From the NCBI GenBank assembly GCA_944325825.1, contig CALVBP010000003.1, positions 16,081 through 80,080 of the forward strand: a stretch of DNA of 64,000 nucleotides, written 5' to 3'. Positions 22,472 to 27,628 of this stretch are shown piece after piece (position 1 is the first letter of the stretch; the number at the start of each line of letters is the position of its first letter). The translations under genes were made by a program, and so were the position numbers. This DNA comes from Candidatus Gastranaerophilales bacterium (GTDB taxonomy: Bacteria > Cyanobacteriota > Vampirovibrionia > Gastranaerophilales > Gastranaerophilaceae). Under the pieces are notes generated by a model. It had not been told where the DNA came from, did not search any database, and saw only the letters and a list, made by a program, of their open reading frames with translations.

Positions 22472-22977
22472 TGAAAAGTGATTTAAGAAACTGGGCAAAA
22501 TCGATTAGAGCTTCTCTTGATATAGAAACCGTAAGCTCAGAGCTTGTGCAAGAACTTATCCGGACAAGTGATTATATACAAGCCAAAAATATAATGATTT
22601 TTTATCCGAAAAAAGGAGAGGTAAATCTGCTTTCTCTTCTTAAAGATAAGACAAAAAATTTTTATCTGCCCAAAATTGAAAATGAAAATCTCCTTTGCTG
22701 CCCGTACAAGGAAGAAGATAAACTGTGTCTTTCTTGTTTCAACACAAAAGAACCGTTAACTAAAGCCTGCAAAAAAGATGTACTGGACTTAATAATAGTT
22801 CCTGCTCTAGCATGTGATAAAGATAATTACAGACTCGGTTATGGCGGAGGTTTCTATGACAGATTTTTAAAAGATACCGATGCCGTCAAAATAACTTGCC
22901 TTCCAAAAGAACTAATAGTAAGTACTGTTTTTCCGGAAGAGTTTGATATCAAAATGGATAAAATAATTACCTGCTAA
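22471..22977 (+). CDS. 5-formyltetrahydrofolate cyclo-ligase
   Basis: DLIIVPALACDKDNYRLGYGGGFYDRFL motif. Confidence 0.93.
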   Translation: MKSDLRNWAKSIRASLDIETVSSELVQELIRTSDYIQAKNIMIFYPKKGEVNLLSLLKDKTKNFYLPKIENENLLCCPYKEEDKLCLSCFNTKEPLTKACKKDVLDLIIVPALACDKDNYRLGYGGGFYDRFLKDTDAVKITCLPKELIVSTVFPEEFDIKMDKIITC

Positions 22978-24188
22978 AAGAACATTTGCATTTCATTAGG
23001 AAGGTATGCGAGATATTTATTTACCATTGGCTGAAGCATTTTGCTGTATGCAGCATGGTCATTATCAACCGATACTACTTCTCCATGATTAACCCCATAA
23101 TTGAAATCATAAGCTGATTTTAATGAATTTTGCGTATTATCCAGTCTAAAGTAATTATTAGTTCCGACCGTATCATTTATAGTAATACCCAGCTCTCTTG
23201 TATCCGGCATTTTTTCTGATAATTCCTGTATTGAAAACCGTATTTGCGGAACTTCATGATGGTTGATATAGTCATAAAGCGCCGTATTGCTATTTCTATT
23301 ATAATATCTGATTGGAGCAGTATTTCTGCAATTATTCTTAGTCAAAAATGTATCAACTAAGCTAACGGTACCCAAACCTGAAGCAATATTCAAACCGTTC
23401 CTTGAAGGGGCTTGAATTTTAATAACGTATCGTTCCCCCTCAGGTGTCTCTATTTTAAAAACTCTCTTATCTGACTTACCGTCGATATACTGCTTAAATT
23501 TAAAAACTTTACCATTAATATTTAAATCAGGGATTTCACAATTTGTCTTAAAACCAAATCCCGTATAACGACTCAAGTATTCCGTTATTTTGCTGAAGTT
23601 TTCTTTTCCGATACTTTCAGGTACGGAACCCAGCTCAAAATTATCATTATGAAAAAGTTCTTTGTGTTTATTTAAAAGAATCTCTTCTTTCCAATCCGGA
23701 CGAATTGTCAAAAGCTCAGAAACTGAAGAAGCATTCTCATATTTTCTATCCAGATAGTTTTCATAAGCCTTCATATACAAATTATTAGGAGAATAAAGAT
23801 TAAATACATCCGCATTCCAGGGTAATTTGTCGTTGAAAGATTTATAAAAATTATTAATATTTCTCGGCTGTTTAACTATACTGTCAATAAATTCATAACT
23901 CAAATCCTCTTTTGATAATATTAACTGAAGCAATTGATTCATTGAGTCTTTCGGAGCTTCAATTTTCAAAAAAGCATTGACCGGAAGCACTTTATCATTA
24001 TTAACAAACCATCTGTAGTCATTAATCAGATTGTTAAGCGGAATCCCGCCTTTAAACCCCAGATGTGATGCATACACTCTCTGCGAAGCATATTGCCCGG
24101 ATTCGCACTTTCTATTATTTATTCTGTTCAAGCTTAATCTTTCCTTTTTATCGGAAATACTTAAACTGTTTATAGAACTTACTTTCAT
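22974..24188 (-). CDS. Hypothetical protein with putative atypical (APH/protein-kinase-like) C-terminal domain
   Basis: DGKSDKRVFKI...YVIK, NDTVGTNNY (D-x4-N), VSVDND; start 7 nt after the upstream stop. Confidence 0.65.
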   Translation of the reverse strand: MKVSSINSLSISDKKERLSLNRINNRKCESGQYASQRVYASHLGFKGGIPLNNLINDYRWFVNNDKVLPVNAFLKIEAPKDSMNQLLQLILSKEDLSYEFIDSIVKQPRNINNFYKSFNDKLPWNADVFNLYSPNNLYMKAYENYLDRKYENASSVSELLTIRPDWKEEILLNKHKELFHNDNFELGSVPESIGKENFSKITEYLSRYTGFGFKTNCEIPDLNINGKVFKFKQYIDGKSDKRVFKIETPEGERYVIKIQAPSRNGLNIASGLGTVSLVDTFLTKNNCRNTAPIRYYNRNSNTALYDYINHHEVPQIRFSIQELSEKMPDTRELGITINDTVGTNNYFRLDNTQNSLKSAYDFNYGVNHGEVVSVDNDHAAYSKMLQPMVNKYLAYLPNEMQMFF

Positions 24189-24195
24189 TTATACC

Positions 24196-25157: not shown

Positions 25158-26003
25158 TTATAAGTTTTCGATTTCCTGGCTGTTGCTTTCCAAATCGTCT
25201 TTAAGCATTTTTCTTACAATATCACTCTGTGTATCAAGCATTTTTACAACCGTTTCTATATTAGCAACTTTTTGTGAAAGAATTGTATCAGCATTAGATA
25301 AAACATTTTGAGAAACTGATTGATAAGCTGATAAAGCTGCCGATGTCGTACCTTGCATTAAGTTACCCATAACGACAGCCGGCAAGCCGAATTCACCGAG
25401 ATAAGGAGCCGCAGCAGTCATTATACCGCCCCATCCTGAGACAAGTCCTGCCAGAGGCATTAAAATATTTGCCGCACCGATTCCATACCCGTTAGCTGTA
25501 CCTACACCGTATGCAGCGGCACTTGCGATATCTGCAATACTTCCTATTCCGGAAGCATAGCCTGTCGGAGAACCTGCTGAAGAGCCGTAACCATACAGTA
25601 AATCTCCGATTGAAGAAGCTCCGCCTGTTGTATACCCGCTTAAACTTGATGCATATCCGCTCGGAAAACCGGAATAATTTCCAAGACTGTTTACTCCGAA
25701 AGATGAATATGTTCCGGTAAGACCGCCTGTTCCGCCTGTATATTGAGACCAGTATGATGTACCCGGAATGTTCATAGCTGTTGTTCCGCCTAATGTTGTC
25801 ATAAATGCTGACGGAGCAAACAAACTTGCCAGCTGATATAAGAATCCGCCGGCAGCTTCAAAACCCGTACCTGTTCCGACAGACCCTGCAACGGTTAAAT
25901 CTCTTAACCTGTCATAGGTTTCATACAGCATGGATTTTGCATCCGATGATGCTGAGCCATATCTGTTCGCTATTACAAGATATCCGTCGTTTTTGTATGC
26001 CAT
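25158..26003 (-). CDS. Gly/Ser/Tyr-rich hypothetical protein with hydrophobic segments and conserved C-terminal helix
   Basis: AGAGG RBS; C-terminus LSQKVANIETVVKMLDTQSDIVRKMLKDDLE aligns with neighbouring family members. Confidence 0.8.
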   Translation of the reverse strand: MAYKNDGYLVIANRYGSASSDAKSMLYETYDRLRDLTVAGSVGTGTGFEAAGGFLYQLASLFAPSAFMTTLGGTTAMNIPGTSYWSQYTGGTGGLTGTYSSFGVNSLGNYSGFPSGYASSLSGYTTGGASSIGDLLYGYGSSAGSPTGYASGIGSIADIASAAAYGVGTANGYGIGAANILMPLAGLVSGWGGIMTAAAPYLGEFGLPAVVMGNLMQGTTSAALSAYQSVSQNVLSNADTILSQKVANIETVVKMLDTQSDIVRKMLKDDLESNSQEIENL

Positions 26004-26041
26004 AGTAGCCTCTTATGTATTCAAGTATGAATTTAATTATA

Positions 26042-27628
26042 CTATCCGTTAAACGTTTTAAATGAATTTTCAACGTTATCGTCAACAACTTTCTTAACAG
26101 CTTCCATTTCCGTAGAAAGAGCACTCTGTTCTGTATCAAGCTGTTTAAGTCTCAATTCCAGCTGCAAATCTTGCTGCTGAATAATAGATGTTTTTGCGTT
26201 AATATCCTGAACCATTTTATCATATACTGCATTGTCGTAATAATACTGGTTCATAGCATCTTGATACGCCTCATCATCCGTAACAGTTTCCATATTCAAT
26301 GTATATGTAACCGAATCATTTTCAAATCTTACGCTTGTAAATCTTCCATTGCCGTCTGTTTCCAAAAGAGCCTTTTCTGTTTCTTCAACTTTTGTTGAAA
26401 CATAGCTTGCATTGTAGTAATTGAGTTTTGCCTGTCCGTCAATATGATTATTTCCCGTTCCGCTTGAGTAAGAAGATAACAAATCGTCATAAGTTGTATA
26501 ATATGTTACACCGTTAAGCTGGAAAGAATAAATTCCGCCGGTATATCCGCCATCAGGACTATAGCAGTCAAGGATACTTGCATCAATTCCTTCTTCTTTT
26601 AAATCTGCCACAACCTGACGGATTTCAGCTTCCTGATCTTCCGTGAGTGAAGTTAAAAGTGTTAGTTCACTGTTACCGATGTATGACGGACGTCTTAAAG
26701 ATTCGTATGCAAACATAGCAGCATCAAATTCGCCTTTTGCTATTTCTTCCGCTTCTTTAAGAGCATCAATCTGGTCATCAAATTCATTAGCGATATTACC
26801 TATAGAATTTGGTCCGGTAAGGTGCAGTACAGGTAATATTGTTTGAGTACCGCCGCCATTACCGCCATAGAGTCCTGACAGGTCATCGGCAAAAGCTATA
26901 TCTCCTGTTGCTGCATCATAATAAACTTTAGTCATATCAGGATTGTCAGGATCCATATCTAAAGCCCCTTCCTGAATCAATCTCTGAATTCCTGCAAGAA
27001 CGAGAGCCTGATCATCGGGGTCAAGTGAACTATAACCGGTAAAGTTGTGATATTCACCCGGAGCCATTGTTCTGGTTCTAAATGAATATGTATCGGTATC
27101 TGCGTTATAGGTACTTTCGTTTATACCTGTATAGGTATTTCTGTCAATATAATTTGATAAGGTTGCCGCCTGGGTTTCCATATCCATTCTTTCAGCTACG
27201 GCGTCATTGTAAGCCTTTTCTGTTTGAGTAACAAGATTTTGAGCTGCCGTAATCTGCGCAATAGTAGCTTCCGTACCGCCTGAGAATTGAACTTGCGGGT
27301 CAGAGAGCCTTTTCATGGAACCTGTATATCTATCGGTATAATAATGGTGAGTAACTACATAGTTATAATCCGGATCTGCACTGGATAATTGCTGCCAGCT
27401 ATCTATTACCGAATCATTTGTACCATCTGAGTATGAATATTGAATTTTGGTATAATCCTGTGTACTTGGCGGTACCGGAACCGTTAAGCCAAGCATTTGA
27501 TTAAATAAATTAGCACTCTGGTTAGACAAAACCGTACGTGCCTGGTTTATCTGCTGACCTTCATATTCACAATTGGATTTTCTAGCAACCAGAGCTAAGT
27601 ATCTGGCTTGAGATGCTGCCATACCCAT
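26042..27628 (-). CDS. 528-aa hypothetical protein with coiled-coil termini (MGMAASQAR... / ...LELRLKQLDTEQ...ENSF) and variable core
   Basis: AGGAGA RBS; heptad-rich termini around a beta/acidic central region. Confidence 0.85.
   Translation of the reverse strand: MGMAASQARYLALVARKSNCEYEGQQINQARTVLSNQSANLFNQMLGLTVPVPPSTQDYTKIQYSYSDGTNDSVIDSWQQLSSADPDYNYVVTHHYYTDRYTGSMKRLSDPQVQFSGGTEATIAQITAAQNLVTQTEKAYNDAVAERMDMETQAATLSNYIDRNTYTGINESTYNADTDTYSFRTRTMAPGEYHNFTGYSSLDPDDQALVLAGIQRLIQEGALDMDPDNPDMTKVYYDAATGDIAFADDLSGLYGGNGGGTQTILPVLHLTGPNSIGNIANEFDDQIDALKEAEEIAKGEFDAAMFAYESLRRPSYIGNSELTLLTSLTEDQEAEIRQVVADLKEEGIDASILDCYSPDGGYTGGIYSFQLNGVTYYTTYDDLLSSYSSGTGNNHIDGQAKLNYYNASYVSTKVEETEKALLETDGNGRFTSVRFENDSVTYTLNMETVTDDEAYQDAMNQYYYDNAVYDKMVQDINAKTSIIQQQDLQLELRLKQLDTEQSALSTEMEAVKKVVDDNVENSFKTFNG

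Follow-up and report, generated by a model that had tools for sequence, protein, structure and literature searches.

The minus-strand gene cluster studied here (Table 1), part of a 64-kb stretch of DNA (the window), is, as judged by sequence comparison, the conserved core locus of a multigene family that is large and almost confined to Gastranaerophilales (Melainabacteria). Both end helices of the family proteins are near-invariant: the N-terminal one (about 50 aa) begins with MGMAASQAR, and the C-terminal one (about 60–75 aa) ends with SFKTF. The folded insert between them is hypervariable in both sequence and size. Searches of Pfam, NCBIfam and PHROGs with the cassette proteins, like those of PDB sequences and with Foldseek, yielded no match; the family is, on these searches, undescribed, as initially annotated, as well as unnamed and very large.

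Table 1. Features of the gene cluster (feature, position in the window, strand, remarks).
528-aa family member	26042..27628	-	ORF; large "decorated" subunit
281-aa Gly/Ser/Ala-rich acidic protein	25158..26003	-	ORF; cassette partner
ORF76, 76 aa, small, basic	24917..25147	-	ORF
89-aa basic protein, pI 10.4	24546..24815	-	ORF
109-aa "core-less" family member	24196..24525	-	ORF; 359 homologues
404-aa atypical protein-kinase-like protein	22974..24188	-	ORF; outside conserved cassette
Sigma-70-type promoter TTGACT-N16-TAAAAT, upstream of 528-aa gene	27663..27690	-	top-scoring site of the region; sequence read directly
Upstream direct-repeat element	25050..25067	-	window CGTAAATTTTTGTAACGA; most loci TGTAAATTTTTGTAACGA
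Sigma-28 (FliA)-type promoter consensus TAAAGTTTTTGAAAAAAATGCCGTTAA	24997..25023	-	181 nt upstream of 89-aa ATG
Conserved elements of 100-nt gap	24845..24914	-	nucleotide alignment of 43 loci, motif scan, sequence

Organization and conservation of the cassette

All six ORFs lie on the same strand at the coordinates that the initial annotation had given, and the 404-aa gene indeed starts 7 nt past the stop codon of the 109-aa gene. The conserved unit has the gene order 528, 281, ORF76, 89, 109 and is present in 44 of 80 related loci, almost all from Gastranaerophilales. Gastranaerophilales are non-photosynthetic cyanobacteria of the gut. The cassette occupies a fixed housekeeping site, with a porin gene on one side and 5-formyltetrahydrofolate cyclo-ligase/dihydroxy-acid dehydratase genes on the other (gene names deduced from sequence rather than obtained by a family search).

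The 281-aa protein is 63–98% identical over the 44 cassette loci, and its gene shows a substitution pattern of the coding type. It is a strictly conserved neighbour whose membership of the family is not demonstrable: the C-terminal heptad pattern that it was said to share is no better than chance (E = 1.7 with the window HMM; hhalign probability 11%, P = 0.0026), and BLASTP gave no match between it and the 109-aa protein. Its proposed role as a membrane-inserting member likewise found no support, the maximum Kyte-Doolittle score over 19 residues being 1.48, with a clear transmembrane segment absent. The 89-aa gene is among the best conserved of the cassette (58–98% protein identity between loci; substitutions 0.41 at codon position 3 versus 0.08 at position 2); its product matched no known family and is unrelated to the remaining cassette proteins. 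The frame of ORF76 is kept open in 42 of the 44 loci, with the weakest third-position bias among the five ORFs. Both peptide motifs conserved in it fall on DNA elements that are themselves conserved, so this region is at least partly regulatory.

The 404-aa protein had been described as a coupled atypical kinase. The kinase part stood: all top Foldseek matches of the AF2 model (pLDDT 85) were kinases (Mps1 and BubR1, probability 0.99; RIO2, 0.97; E between 3.5e-3 and 2e-2), and K257, D339, N345 and D375-N376-D377-H378 are invariant, N344 nearly so. The coupling did not, the gene being found downstream of the cassette in just 4 of the 44 loci (L001, L015, L016 and L047). Homologues amount to just 39 clusters, and the protein is a clade-specific add-on with, on its model, a protein-kinase-like fold.

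Shared end helices and variable inserts

Terminal helices are common to the 109-aa and 528-aa proteins, as had been proposed; in the ungapped N-terminal alignment, 12 of 34 residues are identical, counted by eye. The N-terminal profiles of the two families align with Met1 on Met1 (hhalign P = 6.6e-6, probability 85%) and the C-terminal profiles up to a common SF motif (P = 3.3e-5, probability 72%), so that both matches are anchored at the chain ends; controls with shuffled columns always gave P ≥ 0.027. Between the two proteins themselves, the C-termini match far above chance (BLASTP E = 4e-4). Twelve columns, read from the A1 alignment with eight members per family, are invariant in both (M1, G2, R9, L13, E21, I27, E33, L72, E89, V97, S104 and F105).

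The HMM built on the N- and C-terminal helices, a check suggested in the initial annotation, retrieves 2,840 clusters (50% identity) of 107–861 aa, all aligned from residue 1 through the final residue and with inserts of about 0–750 aa. The arrangement first noticed in this one cluster, a swappable core between conserved end helices, is real and holds as a rule across the family. Homologues of the 528-aa protein, more than 4,239 and without a name or a Pfam domain, are conserved at 0.8–1.0 at their ends and at just 0.1–0.3 in residues 120–310. Synonymous sites of the invariant N-terminal codons are free to vary; therefore, the invariance reflects selection on the protein, not on RNA, and not gene conversion. 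In the AF2 model of the 528-aa protein (pLDDT 81.7), a well-folded mixed alpha/beta core (>90) lies between the N-terminal helix (residues 4–45, about 50) and the C-terminal helix (residues 452–526, about 75). Low-to-medium confidence of end helices around a confident core is as expected for segments folding only on assembly.

The 109-aa protein consists of the two terminal helices linked by the conserved turn G-x-D-L-D-P-D-N-P; on these alignments it is an insert-free version of the family, and a two-helix hairpin is predicted for it from its sequence. Each cassette encodes one such protein, which is much better conserved than the large proteins (typical identity about 75–80%, range 40–98%, versus about 45–65%, range 39–88%; about 80% among the 359 homologues). 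Genomes carry several scattered paralogs; on one contig there are at least three that differ in insert size (L034, L069, L075), each monocistronic and surrounded by housekeeping genes. Both the 528-aa and the 109-aa protein are acidic and without hydrophobic segments, a signal peptide is absent from the family proteins, and the family was absent from 2.9 million viral contigs.

Promoters and conserved DNA elements

The cassette 528-aa gene has a strong promoter, of the sigma-70 type only, with a strong ribosome-binding site (AGGAGA, 27637–27642) between promoter and gene. Of 83 family genes, 66 have TTGACTTT in their upstream region and 55 have ATAGGAGA there. A regulatory link between the family and the flagellar system, missed in the initial annotation, is suggested by canonical sigma-28-type promoter sequences before the 89/109 pair and the stand-alone paralogs. 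Before the pair, the consensus forms codons LKFLKKMPL inside ORF76 and is the single match in the window (0 in 100 shuffles, one mismatch allowed). The motif lies within ORF76 in 43 of the 44 loci, 31 of which have exactly TAAAGTTT-N11-GCCGWTAA; the reference consensus is TAAAGTTT-N11-GCCGATAA (PMC7286023). The direct-repeat element, corresponding to codons VNFCNE of ORF76, also precedes flagellin genes as well as further genes with the sigma-28 motif. Upstream of 16 stand-alone paralogs, a sigma-28-like motif (TAAAG-N15/16-G[CT]CG[AT]TT, background rate one match per 22 kb; G[CT]CGTTT in 15 of the 16) was found 56–101 nt from the ATG, at 56–68 nt in 15 of them.

The same composite of a TGTAAA-N4-TGTAAC element and a sigma-28 motif precedes a bona fide flagellin gene in L112, and the TGTAAC element lies upstream of flagellins in five further loci (L023, L027, L113, L114 and L116). 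The remaining genes with the motif encode mostly unknown proteins. Among 35 flagellin loci of the lineage, 34 had no sigma-28 consensus within 400 nt, and the regulon of the motif may therefore not be strictly flagellar here.

An internal promoter had been suspected in the gap at 24816–24916. No sigma-70-like site was scored there on the minus strand, but the gap contains conserved elements (TGTTAACATTTGTAACAA at 24897–24914, GCAATTATT, and ACATGT-N8-ACATGT, which holds the −10-like hexamer TATTAT/TATAAT at 24851–24856) followed by an AGGAGA ribosome-binding site, and the sigma-28 consensus lies about 80 nt upstream.

Possible function of the family

Because part of the cassette sits behind sigma-28-type promoter sequences, its products are probably an exported surface structure. 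The fuller reading, to which we give somewhat less than an even chance, is that the family would comprise exported surface proteins that form polymers or associate with the flagellum and share their regulation with late flagellar genes. The end helices would pair as a coiled-coil stalk, and through it the subunits would build a polymer or attach to an existing one; the variable domain would face outwards, an arrangement known from flagellin, hook-associated proteins or EspA. Acidic and devoid of a signal peptide, the proteins would leave the cell via the flagellar type III export gate, their production being timed with late flagellar genes via the sigma-28-type sequences. The highly conserved 109-aa hairpin could serve as a core-only subunit, in the part of adaptor, nucleator or cap that FliE plays for the rod, or, alternatively, as a helix-mimicking chaperone that holds the large subunits unpolymerised.

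In favour of exported polymers are the exact FliA consensus in 43 of 44 loci, with 0 expected by chance in the window; the flagellin, FliH and FlhA genes of the window (FlhA and FliH were confirmed at 56–59 kb); the composite element upstream of the L112 flagellin; the sigma-28-like motif of the 16 stand-alone paralogs; and the family architecture, protein-level selection, scattered paralogs, acidic chains and absence from viral contigs. Against them stands the lack of sequence or fold likeness to axial, needle or filament proteins: PDB profile searches listed no such chain even at E ≤ 10 and returned only the usual coiled-coil noise, the best Foldseek match to the family had E = 0.35, and hhalign with the window's own canonical giant flagellin gave a probability below 1%. 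The needle-translocon reading of the initial annotation thus found no support in sequence or fold. Moreover, the FlhA/FliH apparatus is already explained by this normal giant flagellin, no fliA gene was seen within the window, the paralogs have no flagellar neighbours, most flagellins lack the sigma-28 consensus, and the cassette 528-aa gene has only its sigma-70-type promoter.

The absence of both signal peptide and transmembrane segment would also suit an intracellular coiled-coil scaffold, in which hairpins form polymers within the cytoplasm or at the inner membrane like PspA/Vipp1/ESCRT-III or intermediate-filament-like proteins, inserts act as adaptor domains, and sigma-28-like promoters merely couple expression to the motile or growth state. 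The minimal member, a hairpin of roughly 45+45 residues starting with MGL (superficially like what we take to be the PspA/Vipp1 N-terminus), the fixed housekeeping locus and the coiled-coil noise fit such a scaffold. It is nonetheless considered unlikely: extreme variability of the insert in sequence and size, together with several scattered paralogs per genome, is a surface-exposed pattern, not a cytoskeletal one, promoter elements are shared with flagellin genes, and the PspA_IM30/Snf7 Pfam models found no match even at E ≤ 1.

To a similarly low degree, the proteins may be secreted or surface-anchored monomers (adhesins, effectors), their end helices serving as an export or chaperone-binding module instead of in polymerisation, with export through the flagellar gate or, for example, a type I system. 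In Campylobacter, non-flagellar proteins are secreted through the flagellum. The variable core, missing signal peptide and sigma-28-type promoters agree with monomers as well as with exported polymers, and a single, more conserved 109-aa hairpin per cassette, here a dedicated chaperone or decoy, fits a partner that must recognise all paralogs. However, about 110 near-invariant end residues exceed the normal need of an export signal and are typical of assembly interfaces, and the adjoining genes gave no positive evidence of an alternative secretion system.

Still less probable are divergent parts of an ordinary flagellum, with the 528-aa and 281-aa proteins as counterparts of FlgK, FlgL or FliD (hook-associated, cap or sheath proteins) diverged beyond recognition and the 89-aa and 109-aa proteins as FlgM-/FlgN-like regulators or chaperones in a late operon like flgMN/flgKL. 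In size and order the genes bear a loose resemblance to flgK (about 500 aa), flgL (about 300 aa) and small genes dependent on sigma-28, the consensus precedes the two small genes, and a flagellin is encoded in the same window and, in L027, within 5 kb of the cassette. Yet the Flg_bb_rod, Flg_bbr_C, Flagellin_N, FliD and FlgM/FlgN Pfam models were silent even at E ≤ 1; hook-associated and cap proteins occur in single copy and without hypervariability, unlike the scattered paralogs here; and the 109-aa protein has a paralog in the 528-aa protein, a relationship that does not hold for FlgN or FlgM. A merely compositional (coiled-coil) likeness of the termini, with no real family behind it, as low pairwise identity (23–35% over short helices) could suggest, has hardly any probability left, being refuted for the 109-aa and 528-aa proteins by two independent, colinear, end-anchored profile matches, the invariant columns and the clusters matched end to end, and holding for the 281-aa protein, whose match is indeed of the chance kind.

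Comparison with known systems

PspA/Vipp1/ESCRT-III proteins resemble the family in a building block of two long helices and an MG(L/I) start; they differ in having no hypervariable inserted domain, many paralogs or sigma-28 link. The FlaC, FspA and Fed proteins of Campylobacter are non-flagellar, co-expressed with the flagellum and secreted through it. Like the family, they combine sigma-28-type promoters on non-structural genes with a missing signal peptide, but they are unrelated in sequence and do not make up a large multigene family whose ends are conserved. Secretion of FlaC is mentioned in one report (PMC5466977).

Needle and filament proteins (SctF: PrgI, MxiH, YscF; EspA) recall the predicted hairpin of the 109-aa protein, whose C-terminal helix is, however, about 15 residues longer and which the Pfam needle model did not match; the window has no injectisome genes and no translocon-like hydrophobic protein demonstrated by hydropathy. 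The turn D-P-D-N-P presumably resembles the needle turn P-[SD]-[DN]-P, as the C-terminus ...I..SF does ...IIQNFR; we take both as leads only.

From flagellar axial proteins (FliC, FlgK, FlgL, FlgE, FliE), the family differs in lacking homology to Flagellin_N/C and Flg_bb_rod, in its start (MxxINTN in flagellin), and in ends that are shorter and far more invariant. The likeness to flagellin is one of design, and export and polymerisation of the family are predicted. Common to both are conserved end helices around a hypervariable, size-variable middle, several paralogs, acidic proteins without signal peptide, sigma-28-type promoters and a minimal, helices-only member, the 109-aa protein here and FliE for the rod.

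Shared terminal helices define a large protein family

The 109-aa and 528-aa proteins of the cassette (five genes in the order 528-aa, 281-aa, the 76-aa ORF76, 89-aa and 109-aa) belong to a family that is real, very large and undescribed in every library searched. All six minus-strand ORFs that the initial annotation had placed between 22974 and 27628, the sixth being a 404-aa gene, are present there, and its claim that the 109-aa and 528-aa proteins share their terminal helices was borne out by BLASTP, hhalign and a joint profile. The C-terminal similarity reached E = 4e-4 in BLASTP. 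In hhalign, the 109-aa profile was compared with the 528 family in two halves; the N-terminal one aligned Met1 on Met1 (P = 6.6e-6, probability 85%), and the C-terminal one with the extreme end of that family (P = 3.3e-5, probability 72%); the lowest P of 20 column-shuffled controls was 0.027. The joint alignment (n = 8 per family) contained 12 invariant columns (M1, G2, R9, L13, E21, I27, E33, L72, E89, V97, S104 and F105). Judged from these alignments, chance similarity is excluded.

A joint profile of the end helices only (110 positions) was searched against 1.84 billion representative proteins. It matched 2,840 clusters (50% identity) at E ≤ 1e-3, of which 1,256 remained at the stricter cut-off of E ≤ 1e-10. 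The matches were 107 to 861 aa long, and in nearly all of the 150 matches listed the profile covered residue 1 to the last residue. Since it spans the proteins from end to end, two end helices with an insert of any size is the rule for the whole family. The 281-aa protein, which had been counted as a further member, failed in BLASTP, in the HMM of the terminal helices (E = 1.7 within the window) and in hhalign (probability 11% with the 528 family, 0.7% with the 109 family), and on these comparisons the chance explanation of its resemblance stands. The 89-aa and 76-aa proteins were ruled out as relatives of the helix family, and are also unrelated to each other.

Among 83 members from 80 related loci (406 to 733 aa), conservation was 0.8-1.0 at the two ends (50 residues at the N-terminus, 60 at the C-terminus) and only 0.1-0.3 in residues ~120-310. 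Synonymous sites are free to vary in the invariant N-terminal codons, so it is the protein that is constrained, and neither an RNA signal nor gene conversion accounts for the invariance. The AlphaFold2 model of the 528-aa protein (70-sequence alignment; pLDDT 81.7) consists of a helix at 4-45 (pLDDT ~50), a mixed α/β core (>90) and a helix at 452-526 (~75); in the 109-aa family, two helices predicted from sequence are joined by a turn with the conserved motif G-x-D-L-D-P-D-[NS]-P. Proteins of both kinds are acidic, with neither hydrophobic segment nor signal peptide. A second, more divergent branch (442-488 aa; see the table) begins with MG[LM]A[TA]SQVRLL.LTSRK and ends with ...F..F/W. At one related locus (L019), its gene lies directly after the 109-aa gene, in the slot that the kinase-like gene occupies in the window.

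Every member is annotated "hypothetical," no functional name for any of them was found in the sources searched, and the six proteins of the cassette region had no meaningful match in Pfam, NCBIfam or PHROGs. A phage origin was ruled out (0 members in 2.9 million viral contigs). As far as seen, the family is confined to Melainabacteria, the gut non-photosynthetic cyanobacteria; the closest relatives of the AT-rich window (~36% GC) are Gastranaerophilales MAGs. The whole cassette was also present in MAGs labeled Brachyspira (L046) and Muribaculaceae (L025), and a single 510-aa paralog in one labeled Acinetobacter (L052). Their GC content (0.33-0.37) is consistent with Melainabacteria, and the labels probably stem from mistakes in binning or taxonomy; for L046, a Brachyspira origin was ruled out by its GC of 0.37 and synteny.

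The cassette and its neighborhood

The order 528-281-ORF76-89-109 on one strand recurred at 44 of the 80 loci. Identity to the window protein was typically ~85-93% for the 89-aa protein (range 58-98%), ~82-91% for the 281-aa protein (63-98%), ~75-82% for the 109-aa protein (40-98%) and 45-82% for ORF76 (37-82%), and was 39-88% for the 528-aa protein. Substitution was of the coding type (position 3 >> position 2) in all five ORFs, least so in ORF76. Family members outside the cassette are stand-alone, monocistronic genes amid housekeeping genes. At least three paralogs (L034, L069 and L075) lie on one contig, CALUXU010000001.1, and the neighbors of three stand-alone paralogs were housekeeping genes, with no secretion or flagellar gene beside them. 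At many loci, synteny with the cassette extends to genes for a 270-aa and a 128-aa protein (see the table). In one sequencing run (X3), a contig of depth 12 has 26004 fused to 27595; of the 528-aa gene, precisely the body (1,590 nt) is missing and the first 34 nt are retained, and the shorter side of the joint has only 35 nt. This could reflect a strain without the gene, an artefact of assembly, or recombination between the conserved ends. In the metatranscriptome and metagenome runs, which consisted of thin Logan contigs, the cassette region had the same low depth as its neighbors.

Of the "coupled atypical kinase" described for the 404-aa gene, the kinase-like fold was retained but not the coupling: the gene follows the cassette only in L001, L015, L016 and L047, out of the 44 cassette loci. 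It is a clade-specific addition, so that calling it coupled to the system is not justified. Just 39 homologue clusters were found for the protein. The best Foldseek matches of its model (pLDDT 85, pTM 0.82) were all kinases (Mps1 and BubR1, probability 0.99; RIO2, 0.97; VPS34), with E values of only 3.5e-3 to 2e-2 and TM scores of ~0.25-0.37 over ~180-270 residues. Seven residues do not vary across 37 homologues (K257, D339, N345 and D375-N376-D377-H378), and N344 hardly does; among these, candidates for the β3 Lys, the catalytic-loop D-x4-N and the metal-binding Asp of kinases were assigned by eye. The Pkinase, APH and RIO Pfam models gave no match at E ≤ 1. On the model and these residues, "atypical kinase-like" is a reasonable description. 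A second kinase-like gene, near the paralog at L056, proved unrelated to the 404-aa protein.

Promoters and regulatory elements

Conserved sequences before the family genes include a TTGACT-N16-TAAAAT promoter and an AGGAGA ribosome-binding site, and TTGACTTT was found in 66 of 83 upstream regions. A sigma-28-type motif, TAAAG-N14-16-G[CT]CG[AT]T, lies inside ORF76 at 43 of the 44 cassette loci, and 31 of these 43 read exactly TAAAGTTT-N11-GCCG[A/T]TAA; the FliA/sigma-28 consensus is TAAAGTTT-N11-GCCGATAA (PMC7286023). The 64 kb of the window contain no match other than this copy, and none occurred in 100 shuffles, even with one mismatch allowed; at the level of sequence, it is a sigma-28-type promoter. 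The two halves of the motif encode "LK" and "P[LI]" within LKFLKKMP[LI] of ORF76, and its VNFCNE motif equals a second DNA element, TGTAAATTTTTGTAACGA (a TGTAAA-N4-TGTAAC repeat). These peptide motifs are translated DNA elements, so that what is conserved in ORF76 is for the most part a composite promoter. The ORF may serve in part or entirely for regulation, yet it is open in 42 of 44 loci. The 100-nt gap pointed out in the initial annotation (24816-24916) holds further conserved elements (see the table). Intragenic FliA promoters are reportedly found in E. coli. No fliA gene was present in the 64-kb window, and the sole sigma factor found there is of the ECF type.

Sixteen stand-alone paralogs, mainly of the 435-aa class, are preceded by TAAAG-N15/16-G[CT]CG[AT]TT (G[CT]CGTTT in 15 of them), located 56-101 nt upstream of the ATG and in 15 cases at 56-68 nt. 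With a background of one match per 22 kb, less than one was expected. The motif is a variant of the sigma-28 consensus with one extra spacer base.

The sigma-28 consensus, often together with the TGTAAC element, also lies 26-43 nt upstream of several gene families without assigned function (see the table), among them 115-133-aa proteins with YG.xPTGNKxxDK and 278-310-aa "MTDGI[DN]IN" proteins, including one with a glucosaminidase domain of the FlgJ type. The genes behind the motif encode mostly uncharacterised small proteins, and look like a candidate sigma-28 regulon. The conserved sigma-28 consensus and the TGTAAA-N4-TGTAAC element offer a first way into the motility and surface regulon of the non-photosynthetic cyanobacteria.

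Features in the window and at related loci (L-numbers)
Feature	Sequence	Position	Strand	Remark
Canonical giant flagellin	window	5209-8694	-	Flagellin_N 5e-30; 1,161 aa; ATG at 8694, MVSINTNLSSLIAQR
Flagellin leader	window	8695-9010		unusually GC-rich, ~300 nt, three TTTACCCC repeats
1,923-aa ORF	window	13535-19306	-	no Pfam domain; beside TrmB-type regulator and flagellin/Maf region
ACATGT-N8-ACATGT	window	100-nt gap	-	around TATTAT hexamer
GCAATTATT	window	100-nt gap	-	conserved
TGTWAA-N4-TGTAAC	window	24897-24914	-	further copy, in 100-nt gap
ORF76	window	24917-25147	-	
Sigma-28-type motif	window	24997-25023	-	15/16 consensus positions; 181 nt upstream of 89-aa gene
AGGAGA ribosome-binding site	window	27637-27642	-	upstream of 528-aa gene
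TTGACT-N16-TAAAAT promoter sequence	window	27663-27690	-	upstream of 528-aa gene; conserved before family genes
270-aa protein	window	28906-29718	-	of no known kind; TGTAAACAATTGTAACAA element 50 nt upstream
128-aa protein	window	29878-30264	+	coiled-coil, lipoprotein-like
TPS-domain (two-partner secretion) protein	window	32213-34249		
Type IV pilin-like protein	window	43688-44338		
ECF sigma factor	window	46409-46978		
ECF sigma/anti-sigma pair	window	46409-47554		
346-aa ORF	window	59161-60201	-	directly upstream of fliH-flhA, an unusual adjacency; no Pfam match; C-terminal part FliG/MgtE-like by eye
Second-branch member	L059	4787-6115		
Second-branch member	L071	4998-6359		
Second-branch member	L019	14050-15516		
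Gene behind sigma-28 motif	L033	15508-15855		
Gene behind sigma-28 motif	L039	4845-5246		
Gene behind sigma-28 motif	L073	13288-13650		
Gene behind sigma-28 motif	L067	5256-6188		
Gene behind sigma-28 motif	L072	6891-7727		
Gene behind sigma-28 motif	L008	2103-2516		

Flagellins and tests against known axial proteins

FlhA and FliH are encoded in the window, and so is a canonical flagellin, which means that the export apparatus already has an ordinary substrate. A Maf-like gene lies near the flagellin gene; the flagellin leader had no match in Rfam, and similar ATTTACCCC repeats precede the flagellins at L082, L116 and L112. A metagenome scan with the whole flagellin as query returned nothing, and one with its N-terminal domain returned 36 flagellin loci. 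Of 35 flagellin loci from gut and rumen metagenomes, only one, L112, has the sigma-28 consensus upstream, preceded as in the cassette by a TGTAAATTTTTGTAACGA element; flagellin is therefore a poor positive control. The TGTAAC direct-repeat element is also found upstream of other flagellin genes, and at L023 and L027 it precedes true flagellins 4.5-5 kb from the cassette.

Neither Flagellin_N (PF00669) nor Flagellin_C (PF00700) was detected in the 109-, 281- or 528-aa proteins at E ≤ 1, in a search that did detect the genuine flagellin of the window (5e-30 and 1e-14), and hhalign of the family profiles against that flagellin gave a probability of <1%. With Foldseek, the best match of the 528-aa model was at E = 0.35 in the PDB (MacA) and at E = 0.79 in a viral structure library; flagellin N20C20 scored E = 4.8 and TM 0.12, whole-chain searches being a weak test for long flexible helices. 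Flg_bb_rod (PF00460) and Flg_bbr_C (PF06429) were not matched at E ≤ 1, and no rod, hook or hook-associated PDB chain was retrieved with the family profiles A3, A4 and A6 at E ≤ 10. PDB sequence searches with a single protein and with three profiles yielded coiled-coil noise only. The needle-translocon reading of the initial annotation fared no better at the sequence level: Pfam searches gave no match to the models of SctF (PF09392) or EspA, and no needle chain of known structure came up in the PDB profile searches. Overall, its observation was largely right, and the architecture and a possible flagellar link hold up, but the translocon, the coupled kinase and the membership of the 281-aa protein do not.

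Possible mechanism and significance

In the single most likely mechanism, which is put forward tentatively, the family proteins would be exported through the flagellar type III gate, and the exported subunits would then assemble into or onto a filament. Apart from the architecture and the promoter sequences, every step of this mechanism is what we infer. Arguing for it are several features typical of surface-exposed, self-assembling subunits such as flagellins: the near-invariant end helices around a hypervariable, size-variable folded middle; the scattered paralogs, whose promoter and ribosome-binding sequences are consensus-like; the acidic character of the proteins and their lack of a signal peptide; and a core-less mini-paralog with higher conservation than the large proteins have. 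To these are added the sigma-28-type promoters and an element common to flagellin genes. An intracellular hairpin polymer is unlikely, and so, to a like degree, is a set of secreted monomeric adhesins or effectors for which the 109-aa protein would act as chaperone.

Complete flagellar sets are present in only ~25-33% of Gastranaerophilales genomes, the others keeping a subset, for example, flhB, fliI and flgG (PMC4040986; bioRxiv 10.64898/2026.04.24.720558). It is quite improbable that the family forms a new extracellular filament or needle, with subunits and a minimal adaptor exported by the flagellar type III gate, and that this is the reason why the ~75% of Gastranaerophilales without a full flagellar set retain export-gate genes (flhB, fliI and others). 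If true, it would be a third kind of surface polymer built by a type III secretion system (T3SS), beside the flagellum and the injectisome needle, and its bearers would be a lineage widespread in the guts of humans and animals. That the genes are those for hook-associated, cap or regulator proteins of an ordinary flagellum, diverged beyond recognition, is very improbable.

At stake is whether this is an ordinary lineage-specific surface family or a new T3SS-built appendage. As gut symbionts, Gastranaerophilales are widespread in humans, primates and ruminants, and the literature on the lineage surveyed describes no cultured representative. With no fewer than 2,840 clusters (50% identity), the family is very large; it has strongly consensus-like promoter and ribosome-binding sequences, and probably exposes its hypervariable part. 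If its members are exported polymers or surface proteins associated with the flagellum, they would be major antigens, phage receptors or adhesins in this lineage, and they might also explain the puzzling partial flagellar gene sets kept by most genomes (PMC4040986; bioRxiv 10.64898/2026.04.24.720558).

The family does not belong with flagellin, the rod/hook proteins, the needle proteins or EspA, and is like them in design only. The needle protein SctF is an ~80-aa helix-turn-helix with a P-x-x-P turn, with which the conserved turn of the 109-aa family was compared at the level of sequence. The design of flagellin, assembly helices with a swappable outer domain, is echoed in the family without detectable relation to flagellin; if its members are exported polymers, they would be an independent instance of the flagellin design principle.
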